Below are positions 1,241 through 54,190 of a stretch of 64,000 nt of DNA, piece after piece. The translations under genes and the position numbers were made by a program. Each line of letters begins with the position of its first letter. Position 1 is the stretch's first letter. Under the pieces are notes generated by a model. It made no database searches. It was not told the origin of the DNA and saw only the letters and a list, made by a program, of their open reading frames with translations. The stretch spans positions 108,251 through 172,250 of the forward strand of contig JBKJIT010000001.1 of the NCBI GenBank assembly GCA_046598345.1, read 5' to 3'. The DNA is from Minisyncoccia bacterium (lineage in GTDB: Bacteria; Patescibacteriota; Minisyncoccia; Phycocordibacterales; UBA918).

Positions 1241-1432
1241 TCAACCAAGCAAAATGGGCTCCTGCTCATAGAACCGATGCTTGACCCTAAATTGCTTCGA
1301 AAGCCGCTTCCGGAGTTTCTTCTCCTTGGGCCGGTGACTTTTCTTGGTCTTTTTTTCCGGCCTCGCGCCATTGAGGCTCTTGCTTCTGGGTACACGCCGG
1401 GAACACGGTTTCGAACAATGACGTTTGGACAT
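1241..1432 (-). CDS. small highly basic protein (63 aa, K/R-rich), possible nucleic-acid-binding protein
   Basis: Reverse-strand ORF with a near-perfect SD: AAGAGGAGG, 6 nt, ATG (complement of 1430-1432). Protein MSKRHCSKPCSRRVPRSKSLNGARPEKKTKKSHRPKEKKLRKRLSKQ. The overlapping + ORF 1151..1456 spans two hairpins and is less plausible. Confidence 0.45.
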   Translation of the reverse strand: MSKRHCSKPCSRRVPRSKSLNGARPEKKTKKSHRPKEKKLRKRLSKQFRVKHRFYEQEPILLG

Positions 1433-1808
1433 CTACTGCCTCCTCTTCTTGATTGAACTACGGGAACTGCTCCTGAGCTGTGGGCTAGAGTACTCCCGAC
1501 TTATCTTTTTAGCAAGGTGTCAAAAGTTTATATTAATTGCTCAAATCCCCTTATTTTGCTAGTATCTCTGGGTCTTTGTAGGCCTCTCGTGAGGCTGTGG
1601 CTATAAAATGCAAACAGTTTTACGTTTTATCCGGTTCCGAGTGCGCGAGGAAATTCCTAATATCGAGTGGCAGCGAGACAAGGGAATAGGAATGGTTAGA
1701 GCGGTACAAATACAATTTAAAAACTTAGTGCGGCAGTGGCTATGAAGAGCAATGGGATTGCTTTTCATCCGTAGGGTGGTTCTTCAAAAATTAAATAGTA
1801 TAGTGTGC

Positions 1809-1833
1809 GGCCGTAGCTCAGGTGGTTAGAGTG
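1809..1833 (+). other. duplicated 5' fragment of a tRNA (acceptor stem + D-arm only), tRNA pseudogene remnant
   Basis: gcggccgtagctcaggtggttagag closely matches the 5' 25 nt of the downstream tRNA-Ile (gcggctgtagctcagatggttagag). It is then followed by a 12-bp AT-rich hairpin and has no anticodon or T arm. Confidence 0.35.
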
Positions 1834-1885
1834 GTAAAATAGAATAAAGATTCTATTTTACCTGATAACTCTTTGACAATTTCGT

Positions 1886-1959
1886 GCGGCTGTAGCTCAG
1901 ATGGTTAGAGCGCGTCACTGATAATGACGAGGTCCTAGGTTCGATTCCTAGCAGCCGCA
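1886..1959 (+). tRNA. tRNA-Ile (anticodon GAT)
   Basis: Hand-folded cloverleaf. Acceptor gcggctg/cagccgc, D-arm gctcagatggttagagc, anticodon stem cgtca/tgacg with loop ctGATaa, T-arm cctag-gttcgattc-ctagg (note: stem-loop string as written), discriminator A. No encoded CCA. Confidence 0.85.
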
Positions 1960-2350
1960 CAAAGCAGTCAAAGAGACAGACGAGGCCGTAGGCTAAATTA
2001 GTTCGGGGAACTAATTTAGGAGGTTGCCAGATATTTTGTGAGTGAAGCGAGACAAAATAGCGACAACCTGTACTGAACATGTAATGTTCGAGTCCTTACA
2101 GGACCTGTACACTTTTCGCAGAAACTGCTCAAAGTCTTAAAAATGACATTGAGTCATTTTTAACCTTCCGGCCGCACACTGAATGGTATTTAATTTTTGA
2201 AGAATACTCAGTTTAGAGATACCCTTTCGAAAGGTCTTGTTAGGAAGGTAAAATTACATTCATTGAATCCTCATACAAAGGAGTGTATATTCTGAGTTGG
2301 TTTTTTGTTTGTCTTTATTTCAATGTAGTTCTTTCTTAAAGGGAGTGGAA

Positions 2351-3087: not shown

Positions 3088-3459
3088 ATGCTCTGGTTTA
3101 AAAGCTTGGGTCTTGGATTGTTATTCTGGTGTGTGGTAGTTGTAGTTGCAGCTGTCGGTGATTTGCTCGCGGTCATGGGGAACCCTGACATGTCTGATCG
3201 GGAAATGATGGTTCAGCTTGTCATAAACATACTCTTCGTGTGGATGGCTGCGGTAGGCTCATTCCTCCTCATCCACATCAAGAAAATCAAGCTCGGCTGG
3301 CGACCCTTTCTTGTACGCTCCGTGTTTATCTGGGTACCCATCTCGATTGGCTGGTGGGCAATGTCAAAAACAGGCGCTGTCGGCTGGTTTACACTGGGCG
3401 GCATGTTTTCGTCCGTCTTCTTTGCGTATGAAATGCTCGTACTTCGTACACGTACATAA
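3088..3459 (+). CDS. hypothetical integral membrane protein (123 aa, 4 TM)
   Basis: RBS GGGAGAACTAT then ATG. Translation is hydrophobic throughout. Terminator follows. Confidence 0.6.
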   Translation: MLWFKSLGLGLLFWCVVVVVAAVGDLLAVMGNPDMSDREMMVQLVINILFVWMAAVGSFLLIHIKKIKLGWRPFLVRSVFIWVPISIGWWAMSKTGAVGWFTLGGMFSSVFFAYEMLVLRTRT

Positions 3460-3546: not shown

Positions 3547-4893
3547 ATGAGCGATTTTGCTGCCTACTTTAAAGGGAAGAAGATAACTGTCATGCGAATT
3601 GGGCTCCTTGGCCGGGGTGTGGGGGACGCCGCCTTTTTGGCAGAATCTGGAGCAGTTGTTCTTGTAGTAGACGATGCTTCTCAGGAGGTTATGCAACCCT
3701 CAGTAGATGCTCTCAAAAAATATCCAAACATATCATTTAAATTTGGCCCTTACGATGTGACTGATTTTACTGAGGCTGATATGGTGCTCGTTGGAGCAGG
3801 GGCACCATTTGATTTGCCATGTCTTATTGCAGCAAAAAACGCAGGTGTACCACTTACAATGAGCGGAACACTTTTTGCAAAACTTTCGGGAGTTCCTATT
3901 ATTGGAATTACGGGTACGAGAGGAAAATCAACCGTGACGCACATGATTCACCATGTGCTTTCTGAAGCAACGGAGGGGGCCCCGGTGCTTCTTGGTGGAA
4001 ATGTCCGAGGTATCTCCAATTTGCAGCTTTTTAAAGATGTGGAGGAAGGATCGCTTGCGGTCATGGAACTCGATTCATGGCAACTCCAAGGATTTGGCTG
4101 GGCAGAAATAAGCCCGCACGTTGCGGTTTTTACCAACTTTATGGAGGATCATTTAAATTATTATCGGAAGAGCATGGCACTCTATTTCAGAGATAAGGCG
4201 AACATATTTAGATACCAGGAACCGGGGAGTACACTCGTGACTACGCAGGAAGTATTTGATCGGGCGAAAGCATTTGCTAAAGCGGAAGGATTCGAAATGG
4301 GCCAGGAGATTTCATTAGTAGATACTTCTATTTTGCCTCAGGACTGTCTTCTCGCGATGCCCGGAGAACACAATCGGTTAAATGCAGCGCTTGCGTATGA
4401 GGCACTTAAAGCGACAGGACTAGAGGACGAAGTGATTTTTGAAGGGCTCACCACATTCCCCGGAGTTCCGGGACGCCTAGAGTATTTGGGCGAAAAAGAC
4501 GGTGTGAAAATGTACAATGACAACAACGCAACAACCCCGACTGCGACACGAGCGGGACTAAAAGCGGTGGGGAATCCGGCAAACGAAGGAATGAACGTCG
4601 TTCTCATTATGGGCGGAGCAGGAAAGGATCTTGATCCGTCACCGCTTCTTGAAATCATTCCCGAATACTGCAAGAAAGTGATTCTGCTTCCGGGAACTGG
4701 AACGGATACGATTAAGGAAAAGATTGAGGCTGTGGAGGTTCCGTCACTGAAGGAAGCCGTGGAGGCCGCGCTCGGCGTAGCCGAGCGCGGCGATGTGATT
4801 CTTTTTAGTCCCGCGTTCGCATCATTTGGCCTCTTTAAAAATGAATATGACCGCGGTGACCAGTTCGTCGATCTTATAAAAAGTCGACTCTGA
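3547..4893 (+). CDS. murD: UDP-N-acetylmuramoyl-L-alanine--D-glutamate ligase
   Basis: N-terminal Rossmann-like KKITVMRIGLLGRGVG. Mur ligase P-loop GITGTRGKSTVTHMI. Central and C-terminal Mur ligase domains, 448 aa. Confidence 0.88.
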   Translation: MSDFAAYFKGKKITVMRIGLLGRGVGDAAFLAESGAVVLVVDDASQEVMQPSVDALKKYPNISFKFGPYDVTDFTEADMVLVGAGAPFDLPCLIAAKNAGVPLTMSGTLFAKLSGVPIIGITGTRGKSTVTHMIHHVLSEATEGAPVLLGGNVRGISNLQLFKDVEEGSLAVMELDSWQLQGFGWAEISPHVAVFTNFMEDHLNYYRKSMALYFRDKANIFRYQEPGSTLVTTQEVFDRAKAFAKAEGFEMGQEISLVDTSILPQDCLLAMPGEHNRLNAALAYEALKATGLEDEVIFEGLTTFPGVPGRLEYLGEKDGVKMYNDNNATTPTATRAGLKAVGNPANEGMNVVLIMGGAGKDLDPSPLLEIIPEYCKKVILLPGTGTDTIKEKIEAVEVPSLKEAVEAALGVAERGDVILFSPAFASFGLFKNEYDRGDQFVDLIKSRL

Positions 4894-9769: not shown

Positions 9770-9994
9770 ATGGAACCAGCAACAGTGCACGGCATTGCGC
9801 ATGAAGCTGCAGTGAGCCTGAATGACATCGAGCTGATTCAGTTGTGGTCCACAATGACTGCAACTCGATCACCTGACGCGGTGCAAAAGGTGCTTCGGGG
9901 AGAGCCTGGTTCGGCAATCTCGGACGCGCGGCTCCGTGAAGTCGCTGATGCGATGAGTGAGCGAAATCTGTTCTCGTCGATGTGTCTCCTGTAA
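9770..9994 (+). CDS. small hypothetical protein (74 aa)
   Basis: Strong RBS GGGGAGGAGAGT then ATG at 9770. Followed by terminator 10008..10040. Confidence 0.45.
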   Translation: MEPATVHGIAHEAAVSLNDIELIQLWSTMTATRSPDAVQKVLRGEPGSAISDARLREVADAMSERNLFSSMCLL

Positions 9995-10007
9995 AGGAAC
10001 ACCAATA

Positions 10008-10040
10008 CGCCCCGCGGCCTTCAGGCAGCGGGGCGGTTTC
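10008..10040 (+). terminator. rho-independent terminator
   Basis: cgccccgc ggccttcaggca gcggggcg gtttctg. A TATACT -10-like hexamer follows, ahead of the 10056 start. Confidence 0.6.
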
Positions 10041-10055
10041 TGTTATACTTTCAAT

Positions 10056-11966
10056 ATGTCATTTGATCCAAACAAGATCACGTTCTTTGCGCAAACCGAT
10101 GCGCGCGGTAAAAACGTGAAGTTTGGTATTAAAGCGAAGGATAGGCAGCGGCACGTGTACGTCATTGGAAAGACGGGAATGGGGAAGTCGACCATGTTGG
10201 AAAACATGGCGGCGCAGGATATTCAAAATGGAGAGGGTTTGGCATTCATCGATCCACACGGGTCCTCGGCTGAAAGTCTTCTTAATTACGTACCTGAACA
10301 TCGAGTAAATGATGTGCTCTATTTTGCGCCATTTGATACCGACCACCCAATTTCGTTTAACGTCATGGAGGATGTGGGGGCAGACAAGCGGCACCTTGTT
10401 GTGTCTGGACTCATGTCGGTGTTTAAGAAAATATTCGTCGATCAGTGGTCGGCGCGTATGGAGTATATTCTTTCGAATACGCTCCTTGCGCTTCTTGAGT
10501 TTCCAGACTCGACGCTTCTTGGAGTTAACCGCATGCTTTCCGATAAGGACTACCGTAAGAAAGTAATTGATAACATCACCGACCCATCCGTAAAGTCTTT
10601 TTGGGTGGATGAGTTTTTGAAATACAACGAACGATACATGCAGGAGGCGGGTGATGCGATCAAGAATAAGATTGGGCAATTTACTGCAAATCCGGTTATT
10701 CGCAATATTATCGGACAACCGAAGTCGTCGTTTGATATTCGGAAGATCATGGATGAAAAAAAGATCATCATTATGAATCTTTCCAAGGGTCTTATTGGTG
10801 AAACCAATGCGAATCTCTTGGGGTCTATGCTGACGACGCGTATTTATCTTGCGGCGATGAGTCGTGCTGACCTTAGCCCTGAGAAGATGCGCGATATGCC
10901 CAATTTCTATTTTTACGTAGATGAGTTCCAGTCGTTTGCAAACGCAACCTTCGCGAATATTCTTTCTGAGGCTCGTAAGTACCATCTCAATCTCACGATT
11001 GCACACCAATACATCGAGCAAATGGAAGAGGATGTGCGCAATGCTGTTTTCGGTAACGTAGGCACGACGATTGCGTTTCGAGTGGGGCCATTTGACGCTG
11101 AAGTCCTTGAGACCATTTTTACCCCACAGTTTCTTGCCGCCGATATTGTTAATTTAGGGTTTGCACAAGTCTATCTCACCTTAATGATCGACGGTATTGG
11201 TTCTCAGCCATTTTCTGCGACAACGCTACCTCCGATTGAGCCTCCTCTCATTTCCCATAAAAATATGGTGGTTGCGGCGAGTCGCAGACAATTTTCTCGT
11301 CTTCGGCCAGAAGTTGAAGCTCAAATTTTAAAATTCCATGAGCCGGTTGTTTTTGTAAAGAAGTTAGAAGAAAAGCCTGCCCTTCCTAAGCCTTCACCTG
11401 TGGAGGAAAAGAAGCTCCCCTACGTTACCTTACAACCTAAAACGGCAAGTACTCCAACAGTCTCCCGTCCACCGGCCGGTGTTCTGCACCATGAAGAAAC
11501 CCCTCATCGCGAATCTTCTTCGCACGGAGAATTTCTAAAACGGGAAGAGCGAAGGCAGGCTGAACGTCGGCTAAGCGAGCGGCCATCTCCAGCTTCTCTG
11601 CCACATAAACCCAAGGAACATAATCTAAATGAACTCAGATCTGTGCTTAAAAATATTGTGAGAGTGGACACAGAAAAAAATACAGAGGAAAACAAGATCC
11701 CCCACAAAGCGGAAAAATTTGAGGAGTCGCGAGGCGAACTGAAGAATCTTCTCAGTTCTGTCCTTAAGACAGCTCCGCCTCCGACTGCGCCTATCCCCTC
11801 ACCAGCTGCAGCTATATCTCCACCCACACCCACACCCACACCGTCACAGCCTCCTCAGGTAGAGGAGCGCATACCACCCCAGCCACCGACACCAGAAAGT
11901 GCGGTAACTCCTAAAGAACTTGAACGGATGATGCGGGTGACGACTAGTGATACTTCGCCGCTCTAG
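10056..11966 (+). CDS. HerA/DUF87-like (FtsK-HerA superfamily) P-loop ATPase with low-complexity Pro/Thr-rich C-terminal tail
   Basis: Walker A VIGKTGMGKST, then FIDPHG about 17 aa later (HerA/DUF87-style DPHGEY-like motif). IIMNLSKG and a Walker-B-like FYFYVDEFQSF. C-terminal 150 aa is disordered: PTAPIPSPAAAISPPTPTPTPSQPPQ. Confidence 0.6.
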   Translation: MSFDPNKITFFAQTDARGKNVKFGIKAKDRQRHVYVIGKTGMGKSTMLENMAAQDIQNGEGLAFIDPHGSSAESLLNYVPEHRVNDVLYFAPFDTDHPISFNVMEDVGADKRHLVVSGLMSVFKKIFVDQWSARMEYILSNTLLALLEFPDSTLLGVNRMLSDKDYRKKVIDNITDPSVKSFWVDEFLKYNERYMQEAGDAIKNKIGQFTANPVIRNIIGQPKSSFDIRKIMDEKKIIIMNLSKGLIGETNANLLGSMLTTRIYLAAMSRADLSPEKMRDMPNFYFYVDEFQSFANATFANILSEARKYHLNLTIAHQYIEQMEEDVRNAVFGNVGTTIAFRVGPFDAEVLETIFTPQFLAADIVNLGFAQVYLTLMIDGIGSQPFSATTLPPIEPPLISHKNMVVAASRRQFSRLRPEVEAQILKFHEPVVFVKKLEEKPALPKPSPVEEKKLPYVTLQPKTASTPTVSRPPAGVLHHEETPHRESSSHGEFLKREERRQAERRLSERPSPASLPHKPKEHNLNELRSVLKNIVRVDTEKNTEENKIPHKAEKFEESRGELKNLLSSVLKTAPPPTAPIPSPAAAISPPTPTPTPSQPPQVEERIPPQPPTPESAVTPKELERMMRVTTSDTSPL

Positions 11967-53902: not shown

Positions 53903-54190
53903 TGGAGCTCTAAATTTGAAAGTTTAACGTAAAGATCCCCGGGGTGGGGATTTTTGCGTTTTAGGGTGTGCCTCAACGTAGAAATCCTCACCCCGGGTGG
54001 GTGAGACAGTCTGGGGGAGTGTCGCAAGACTTTGAACTCTAATTTAGTCTCCCAGACTAAATTAGTATGAAAAGTTACAGCCGCTGTATGCGGTTTTTGC
54101 GTTTTAGGGATGGTATACTACGAGGAGCTCGTCTTTCGATATGGCTAGTAGCGGCGCTCACAATATTTAAACTTTCAATTAATTTGGAGT
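53903..54190. repeat. MITE-like non-coding element: imperfect terminal inverted repeats (ggagctctaaatttgaaagtttaa ... ttaaactttcaattaatttggagtcc) enclosing internal palindromes and a 16-nt direct repeat
   Basis: Internal perfect hairpin ctaatttagtct-ccc-agactaaattag. Palindrome atccccggggtggggat. tttttgcgttttaggg appears at about 53950 and about 54097. Confidence 0.4.

Follow-up and report, generated by a model that had tools for sequence, protein, structure and literature searches.

An intact tRNA-Ile gene nested within a broken copy of itself in a Minisyncoccia bacterium

What kind of locus is a bacterial tRNA gene that is bracketed by a long inverted repeat and preceded by a second copy of its own 5' end? 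The question is raised by a 64,000-nucleotide (nt) stretch of DNA from a Minisyncoccia bacterium (NCBI GenBank assembly GCA_046598345.1, contig JBKJIT010000001.1, positions 108,251 to 172,250 of the forward strand; hereafter, the window), in which a tRNA-Ile(GAT) gene is followed by murD and murC. A preliminary description of the sequence had read this arrangement as an attL/attR-type integration or excision scar or, alternatively, as a small tRNA-carrying mobile element or a structured non-coding RNA. On balance, we favor a different answer: the segment at about 1570-2205 appears to be a tRNA-Ile(GAU) transcription unit in which the intact gene is nested in an older, broken copy of itself, the product of duplication, recombination and insertion.

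The inner gene is a canonical tRNA, as originally described. ARAGORN places it at 1886-1960 on the + strand as the sole tRNA in the 64 kb, and Rfam assigns it to RF00005 with 75.4 bits against a threshold of 29. At the curated thresholds, tRNA is the only Rfam family detected in the window, and a permissive scan of 1400-2400 returned, beyond the tRNA, only chance-level matches; the region as a whole matches no Rfam family.

The 35-bp imperfect inverted repeat is real, and lies within 1-2 nt of where it had been placed. The arms, 1779-1813 and 2169-2204, align with 32 matches, 2 mismatches and one 2-nt gap, include perfect blocks of 18 nt and 12 nt, and enclose 355 bp. The arm score is 27, whereas 3000 randomly drawn pairs of window segments with the same spacing scored 5.6 ± 1.3 (maximum, 18), and the 18-mer of the repeat has no second copy in the 64 kb (chance expectation, 0.18 matches). 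What had gone unnoticed is that the right arm (+ strand) starts with a 3' acceptor strand matching the duplicated 5' fragment of the tRNA: CGGCCGCA (2169-2176), acceptor strand plus discriminator, pairs with GCGGCCG of that fragment (1806-1812), at the inner end of the left arm. Because of this pairing, the inner part of the repeat is identified as the acceptor stem of a second tRNA copy. The rest of the left arm (1779-1805, + strand) is the leader strand of a long helix, and the rest of the right arm is its trailer strand. The inverted repeat thus combines two parts of a broken tRNA-Ile copy, its acceptor stem (GCGGCCG/CGGCCGC, the inner 7-9 bp) and a leader/trailer helix of about 27 bp. The repeat is unique in the window, yet has a diverged homologue in a related murD locus, L068 (L numbers denote such loci throughout), where the counterpart of the left arm, CTTTGAAAATTAAATAATGTAGTGT, is the leader located 5' of the intact tRNA and the counterpart of the right arm, ACACTGAACGTTACTTTAATTTTCAAAG, is the trailer. 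This homologous helix in L068 directly encloses the intact tRNA-Ile, so in the window lineage it is the broken gene that occupies the respective position. Folded as RNA, 1775-2210 reaches -168.7 kcal/mol (z = -10.7 against dinucleotide shuffles), and the closing helix of this fold is the inverted repeat.

Between the arms, the outer copy can be followed from end to end. Its segments, 1806-1832, 1862-1868, 1977-1992, 2085-2099 and 2169-2177, stand in tRNA order and tile the tRNA once, without overlap; when joined, they agree with the intact gene at 61 of 75 positions, with a score of 38.5 compared with -3.5 ± 3.9 for shuffled sequences. Four interruptions separate them, namely, an AT-rich hairpin, a cassette carrying the intact tRNA and, in the T arm, two triple-hairpin elements of about 100 nt each. 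Hence a broken tRNA-Ile copy encloses a working tRNA-Ile gene and two palindromic repeats.

The 5'-most piece (1805-1831, + strand), which comprises the acceptor 5' strand and the D arm, is the duplicated tRNA fragment of the preliminary description; it is 93% identical to 1884-1910, is 27 nt long rather than 25, and forms a D-arm-like hairpin in the minimum-free-energy fold. Only 79 nt separate this 5' copy from the intact gene. The AT-rich hairpin that follows (1833-1862, + strand; denoted H) had been recognized as well, with 12 bp, and actually has 13 (1833-1845 paired with 1850-1862). It takes the place of the 5' anticodon-stem strand, and L068, L054 and L051 have hairpins of this kind at the equivalent position. 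The anticodon loop of the outer copy, CTGATAA (1862-1868, + strand), does not differ from the loop of the intact gene; the nested cassette (1869-1975, + strand) is located immediately 3' of this outer-copy loop. The cassette consists of CTCTTTGAC and a leader (1869-1885), the tRNA-Ile(GAT) gene (1886-1960), and a trailer with GTCAAAGAG (1961-1975); its flanks form a 24-nt inverted repeat that is 83% complementary, and are paired in the predicted fold. The sequence directly 5' of the intact tRNA, CTCTTTGACAATTT (1869-1882), resembles the boxA of rRNA-operon antitermination (TGCTCTTTAACAATTT). It is not conserved in the leaders of the relatives, and the boxA reading was dropped for that reason.

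Beyond the cassette, the outer copy resumes with the 3' strand of the anticodon stem, the variable loop and the 5' strand of the T stem (CAGACGAGGCCGTAGG, 1977-1992, + strand), aligned to tRNA positions 39-53. The first triple-hairpin element (1990-2093, + strand) starts here and includes the hairpin previously given as a perfect one of 9 bp; the hairpin is there, with 12 bp (1993-2004 paired with 2008-2019). A T-loop remnant, TGTTCGAGTCCTTAC (2085-2099, + strand), is 81% identical to 1939-1954, overlaps the ends of both elements, and contains the T-loop-like GTTCGAGTCC (2086-2095) that had already been pointed out. The second element (2087-2166, - strand) extends almost to the right arm, with which the outer copy ends.

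Upstream of the left arm, there are two more tRNA-Ile-derived fragments that were missed in the preliminary description. The first (1589-1705, + strand) comprises an acceptor-like sequence, GTGAGGCTGT, a D-loop expansion with three hairpins that represents a diverged form of a recurrent module (module A, discussed below), and ATGGTTAGAGCG, the 3' part of a D arm. A 12-nt exact copy of tRNA positions 16-27 begins at 1692; the fragment aligns to the upstream region of L068, and 1589-1640 is covered by a BLAST match to module A of that locus. The second, truncated fragment (1728-1779, + strand) consists of GTGCGGCAGT GGCT, a hairpin and CCG, and repeats 1589-1613 in its part 1728-1752 at 80% identity.

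The probable promoter of the whole unit, assigned by homology, is located at 1537-1565 (+ strand), with the -35 box TTGCTC (1537-1542), a 17-nt spacer and the extended -10 box TGCTAGTAT (1557-1565). The site agrees with a motif, TTTGCTATAGT, that is found 5' of tRNA-Ile or of the outer copy in most relatives. A consensus promoter scan did not list it because the -35 box fits at only 3 of 6 positions. In the nested loci of the relatives, the sole promoter motif sits 5' of the outer 5' part.

This organization suggests how the unit could be expressed and how it could have arisen. Transcription from the single promoter would yield a precursor of about 650 nt that would fold into nested helices, and RNase P together with 3'-end enzymes would release from it a single functional tRNA; RNase III might also cut the long perfect helices, and the leftover RNA would be a scaffold or a by-product. 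As to the origin, segments of tRNA-Ile would have been duplicated and recombined, and hairpin elements and helix-flanked tRNA cassettes would have been inserted into the loops of the redundant copy, with no integrase involved. Such duplications and recombinations would survive because an intact copy is always kept.

The related loci are consistent with this scenario in several respects. The closest MurD homologs, at 52-70% identity, come from Paceibacteria/Parcubacteria-type genomes of the candidate phyla radiation (CPR) and from metagenomes (at most 70% in genomes and 69% in metagenomes), and the organism itself is a CPR bacterium of the Paceibacteria; an exact look-up of the window MurD in public assemblies gave no record. 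Among 161 related murD loci, 119 carry an adjoining tRNA-Ile(GAT), on either strand relative to murD, and where the locus extends far enough, the 16S rRNA gene is found 1.2-1.5 kb upstream. An intact tRNA-Ile is retained in all 119 loci, and about half of these hold additional, interrupted copies derived from it, none of which lies more than 800 nt from the gene. A nested and a tandem form of interruption both reappear in many species, each with constant offsets. In the nested form, the promoter is followed by the 5' part of the outer copy, which contains a D-loop expansion, and then by CTGA, a hairpin with CTGTCCAC, and the leader; 3' of the intact tRNA come the trailer, GTCTTGCG, a hairpin, CTCAC and finally the 3' part of the outer copy. 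In the tandem layout, the interrupted copy begins 12-19 nt past the tRNA. In L068, the cassette is located inside the D loop of the outer copy. The CTGTCCAC box resembles a DnaA box. A replication origin at this locus was considered and set aside because the GC skew keeps its sign across the window; it is further disfavored by the co-stranded 16S rRNA and murD genes on either side of the locus in the relatives.

Several other features were observed in these loci. A module denoted D, with AAGGGCACTTCC in a hairpin closed by CCATTTTTA/TAAAAATGG, occurs near tRNA-Ile in L004, L028, L061, L002, L155 and others; it is found on both strands, and its reverse complement resembles the conserved promoter/start region (GCTATAGT..GGCCACTTG). 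A conserved hairpin with the loop CTTATGAGCG(T/A)AGCGAATTAGTGAG (L025, 520-565; L111, 1020-1065; L064, upstream of the tRNA) recurs in the spacer between 16S rRNA and tRNA-Ile in several relatives. In L003, exactly 100 N (3755-3854) fall in the T loop of the sole tRNA-Ile seen there, and a partial 3' copy and an element follow. A hidden T-loop insert in this tRNA was considered and rejected, the 100 N being an ordinary scaffold gap. The gap was most likely caused by these repeats, and similar loci in metagenome-assembled genomes may often be mis-assembled.

The triple-hairpin elements belong to a single family, which we denote R1. A covariance model was built from 11 copies, in the alignment of which 22 of 31 base pairs show compensatory changes, and was used to scan 1.36 Mb, that is, the murD neighborhoods of the relatives together with the window. 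With E < 1e-3, the scan detected 55 copies, three of them in the window. The element at 1990-2093 lies in the tRNA-strand, or C, orientation (102.1 bits, E = 2e-19). The one at 2087-2166 is in the opposite, or B, orientation, has a short central stem (40.9 bits, E = 1e-6) and gives BLAST matches in L025, L023 and L014. What had looked like two module types is thus one family seen on opposite strands. The third copy, a distant one (33.1 bits, E = 4e-5), is located 52 kb away, at 53998-54098 on the + strand, between an O-antigen-ligase-like gene and murB. It is bracketed by a 16-nt direct repeat, TTTTTGCGTTTTAGGG (53951-53966 and 54094-54109), which could be its target duplication. This copy holds a hairpin much like 1993-2019 on the other strand, and a terminator-like hairpin precedes it.

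Across the family, 94% of the cells in paired columns are paired, and compensatory changes are seen at each of the 31 pairs. The alignment, which was fitted to the model, has only 23 G·U pairs (about 1.5%) and 8 A·C pairs among about 1545 cells. The copies can be nested in copies of themselves. For 44 of the 55 (80%), tRNA-Ile is no more than 800 nt away; of these, 18 share the strand of the tRNA and 26 are on the opposite one. The other 11 are farther away or in a locus without tRNA-Ile, and in the relatives' loci, a copy occurs just 3' of 16S rRNA. Neither strand-specific pairing rules nor a fixed orientation were found in R1, with G·U pairs few and both orientations common. The triple-hairpin element behaves like a small mobile or recombining palindromic DNA.

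The classes that we take to be the closest comparison for this element are repetitive extragenic palindromes (REP) and their mosaic arrays (BIME), BOX, Correia and Rickettsia palindromic elements, and miniature inverted-repeat transposable elements (MITEs). Similarly to repeats of the REP and MITE type, the R1 element is non-coding, modular, multi-copy, present on both strands, nestable and nearly purely Watson-Crick paired, also occurs between genes and, in one case, is flanked by a 16-nt direct repeat. Unlike those, it is concentrated at one locus, sits in tRNA-derived loops and lacks the usual terminal inverted repeats. We know of no cognate transposase for it.

The association of partial duplications with these elements extends to other genes. 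In L055 (560-800), a tRNA-Leu(CAG) gene and a terminator-like hairpin are followed by a partial copy of the T loop and acceptor of the same tRNA that is interrupted by a triple-hairpin element, so the phenomenon is not confined to tRNA-Ile. In L025 (3532-3900), a 65-nt copy of the murD 5' end (MTDFKEYFKGKKITVMG...) precedes two triple-hairpin elements, which are followed by the complete murD gene. Here, the pattern of partial duplication plus element is seen at a protein-coding gene; the duplicated murD fragment is closer to the MurD of the window than to that of L025 itself.

Other parts of the locus, in contrast to R1, bear the marks of selection as RNA, namely, compensatory pairing and an excess of G·U and, in the case of module A, a fixed orientation. 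One of these parts is the leader/trailer helix. In 43 of 62 loci (score of at least 12), the acceptor stem runs unbroken into such a helix, typically of 13-25 bp. The helices fall into a handful of unrelated sequence types, with the pairing kept in all of them, and on the tRNA strand, there are 84 G·U compared with 13 A·C, a count that includes inherited, non-independent events. Two tRNA-Leu genes in the same loci have no such extension of the acceptor stem. A generic hairpin census of G·U against A·C was too noisy to be used (64 versus 46, with 115 versus 111 in the control). A parallel is provided by the processing stems formed by the leaders and trailers of rRNA operons, which are RNase III substrates. 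As in those, long helices arise from the flanks of a stable RNA gene, the 16S rRNA gene is close by in the relatives, and tRNA-Ile(GAU) is a classic rRNA-spacer tRNA; unlike in those, the helix continues the acceptor stem of a tRNA and the unit has a predicted promoter of its own.

The other part is module A, the D-loop expansion with its own acceptor-like 5' strand. The 64 copies in 57 loci are all co-oriented with the tRNA and lie either 12-19 nt downstream or 32-66 nt upstream of it. The three hairpins covary, with 739 Watson-Crick pairs, 48 G·U and 8 A·C. To judge from these patterns, module A behaves like a transcribed, structured RNA.

These observations bring us to the points that weigh against our preferred reading. 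Parts of the scaffold, module A in particular, look, by their pairing patterns, selected as RNA rather than junk. Any extra copy is missing from about half of the relatives, from which it follows that the scaffold is dispensable. The exact arrangement of the window recurs in no sampled relative, with the closest MurD being 70% identical. No enzyme capable of inserting the elements or the cassettes was found among the window open reading frames (ORFs) with Pfam. Finally, the G·U counts of the leader/trailer helices are inflated by the ancestry common to the few helix types.

The alternative to which module A lends most weight, in our view an unlikely one that deserves to be kept in mind, is that the scaffold, that is, the outer copy together with the upstream D-loop-expansion fragments, is a functional structured RNA transcribed together with tRNA-Ile. 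Its role might be that of a tRNA-like RNA to which an enzyme that handles tRNAs binds, or that of a scaffold for processing or stability, and the inverted repeat would be its selected closing helix. Apart from the constant strand, the fixed distances and the covariation of module A, this possibility is supported by the conservation of its loops, such as GATGTTTACGAG, by the low fold energy given above, and by the 5' acceptor strand of the paralog, which co-varies with the tRNA acceptor of each genome. It is at odds with the absence of any extra copy in about half of the relatives, the wide variation in composition and order even among loci with the same leader helix, the many outer copies that lack the anticodon stem or the 3' half, the high divergence of module A in the window itself, and the lack of an Rfam match. 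Among known RNAs, we take tmRNA and YrlA as the nearest comparison: like these, the shell has a tRNA-shaped core with large extra domains, but unlike them, it is nearly identical to the neighboring tRNA-Ile, highly variable in composition, absent from half of the relatives and matched by no Rfam family.

The cassette invites another, still less probable explanation. A helix-flanked tRNA-Ile cassette could be a selfish mobile unit that enters the loops of the resident tRNA-Ile gene, destroys that gene and replaces its function, in which case the window would record at least two successive rounds, and the approximately 100-nt hairpin elements would be derivatives without a tRNA. Intact cassettes are indeed found at three different places in the loops of outer copies, after CTGA in the anticodon loop (at least 10 species), after CTGATAA (the window) and in the D loop (L068). 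In its central stem, the hairpin element is similar to the leader/trailer stem of the nested cassettes, a few discrete leader types are scattered over the MurD tree, and the duplicated murD fragment of L025 with its two elements also fits. However, no transposase, recombinase or reverse transcriptase was matched among the window ORFs of at least 200 aa, no pair of empty and filled sites was found among close relatives, and the junctions have no clear common target motif; homologous recombination among tRNA-derived repeats could yield many of the same arrangements, and the MurD tree behind the judgement of patchy distribution is a rough neighbor-joining tree. The more ambitious statement that the nested shells result from repeated rounds of a self-propagating 'replace-and-destroy' cassette, or else that the shell is a new structured RNA of tRNA origin that has its own function, also strikes us as improbable, although not to be neglected. 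The second suggestion of the preliminary description, a small tRNA-carrying mobile element or structured RNA, came closer to the evidence than the first one: there is a helix-flanked tRNA cassette in the loops of another tRNA-Ile copy, both in the window and in relatives, and parts of the locus show RNA-type covariation.

The first suggestion, that of an integration scar, fared worse and is, in our assessment, very unlikely. Under this explanation, the extra segments would be the attL/attR remains of an island or prophage inserted by an integrase at tRNA-Ile and subsequently deleted or excised. tRNA genes are classic integration sites, with integrases using sublocations in the anticodon loop and the T loop. 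As in att scars, extra tRNA segments lie by an intact gene, and the partial 3' copies in the relatives often run from the anticodon or T loop to the 3' end, for example, over positions 38-75 or 57-75. Arrays of partial tRNAs are reported for integrative elements in Prochlorococcus (bioRxiv 10.1101/2020.12.28.424599). Unlike att scars, however, the window pieces tile one whole tRNA around the intact gene, with no core repeated at the junctions, and the hairpin-element junctions share no block of identity. The spacers are conserved hairpins of about 30-200 nt, not decayed genes, and no island was found; the partial copies in the 119 loci all lie within 800 nt of the gene; and no integrase-family protein was matched among the window ORFs of at least 200 aa. 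The module patterns are also absent from 2.9 million viral contigs, save for one chance match in a coding region. The pattern GTCTTGCG..CTCACTCGAAAGG had no matches there; the single viral match, to the 17-mer CGACAACCTGTACTGAA, falls in a phage coding region without a tRNA and was discounted as fortuitous.

That the outer copy is an intron-containing tRNA gene, with introns that self-splice or are cut by an endonuclease and sealed by a ligase, we consider highly improbable. The interruptions all lie in or beside the loops of the cloverleaf, the exons are very similar to the intact gene, and in L025, the T-stem pairing of the outer copy is kept by a double change. Multi-intron tRNAs are known in archaea and a red alga (PMC4090602, PMC9602550). 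The similarity to the archaeal multi-intron, split and permuted tRNAs extends to interruptions in the D, anticodon and T regions and to long complementary flanks that hold the halves together. Yet the organism here is a bacterium, and the intact gene is always present, inside the interrupted one. No bulge-helix-bulge was evident on inspection of the junctions, with no formal motif search made. When joined, the exons have no 5' anticodon-stem strand, depart from the intact gene at 14 of 75 positions, and thus restore no working tRNA; the paralog lineage has lost U8 and carries a change at position 7. Group I introns that occur in the anticodon loops of bacterial tRNAs, including tRNA-Ile, share the insertion site, but the inserts described here are of about 100 nt or contain a whole tRNA, and occur on both strands, also away from tRNAs. 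Rfam scans with E values up to 5 or 10 detected no group I or other ribozyme in the window locus, in six relatives or in a complete nested unit, and no Pfam family of a splicing endonuclease or ligase was found within the 64-kb window. Splicing is also not needed, because every locus keeps an intact gene.

An invertible switch driven by the inverted repeat is the least probable reading: although the 35-bp arms flank 355 bp and the tRNA-Ile unit is found on either strand relative to murD among the relatives, no recombinase family was matched among the window ORFs of at least 200 aa. With the promoter outside the arms, an inversion would leave an essential single-copy tRNA silent, and where relatives have the unit in the opposite orientation, gene and promoter are inverted together.

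Among the window ORFs of at least 200 aa, no integrase, transposase or reverse transcriptase was matched with Pfam at the thresholds used. Four scanned ORFs of 63-132 aa adjoining the locus have no Pfam recombinase match. The ORFs 2297-2695 and 3088-3459, next to the locus, belong to no Pfam family, and an adjacent reverse transcriptase of the retron type was not found. The scanned ones among the small neighboring ORFs (2351-2695, 3088-3459, 1241-1432 on the - strand, and others) have no Pfam family, and the small ORFs have no homolog in 160 related loci; judging by these comparisons, they do not appear to be linked to the element. The ORF 1241-1432 (- strand, 63 aa) is extremely rich in lysine and arginine (MSKRHCSKPCSRRVPRSK...), and in L025, a reading frame of about 73 aa (1711-1932, - strand) is found a short way upstream of the tRNA unit.

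The remainder of the window is occupied by a large surface-polysaccharide cluster, murB, secA and obg. The cluster, of about 44 kb (about 9900-53900), separates murD and murC from murB and encodes glycosyltransferases, sugar epimerases, sulfotransferase and 3'-phosphoadenosine-5'-phosphosulfate (PAPS) synthesis functions, and asparagine-synthase-, flippase- and Wzy-like proteins. The G+C content is 0.36-0.43 at 28-50 kb compared with about 0.47 elsewhere, and part of the cluster may have been horizontally acquired. A 669-aa protein (9957-11966, + strand) shows weak matches to a TrwB/VirD4-type coupling protein and to a HerA-like ATPase domain; its gene adjoins the cell-wall genes, an odd neighbor for a genome of about 1 Mb.

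Searches of full-text literature, in a corpus without subscription journals, yielded no paper that describes nested or interrupted tRNA genes, or repeats of this kind, from CPR bacteria, and we know of no described bacterial counterpart of a working tRNA gene located inside the loops of its own broken copy. For annotation, the locus is a caution: it resembles an integration scar, and pipelines would annotate one tRNA and overlook the conserved and structured sequence of tRNA origin, about 550 nt in all, that surrounds it. It also adds two new families, the Watson-Crick-only triple-hairpin repeat with a preference for tRNA loops and the strand-specific, RNA-like D-loop expansion module. The nested layout is found in bacteria with genomes of roughly 1 Mb, and the conserved 13-25 bp extension of the acceptor stem raises the question of how tRNA-Ile matures in these organisms. 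If the cassette is mobile, it would provide a route for the selfish spread of an essential gene; if the shell is functional, it would be a new tRNA-like RNA.

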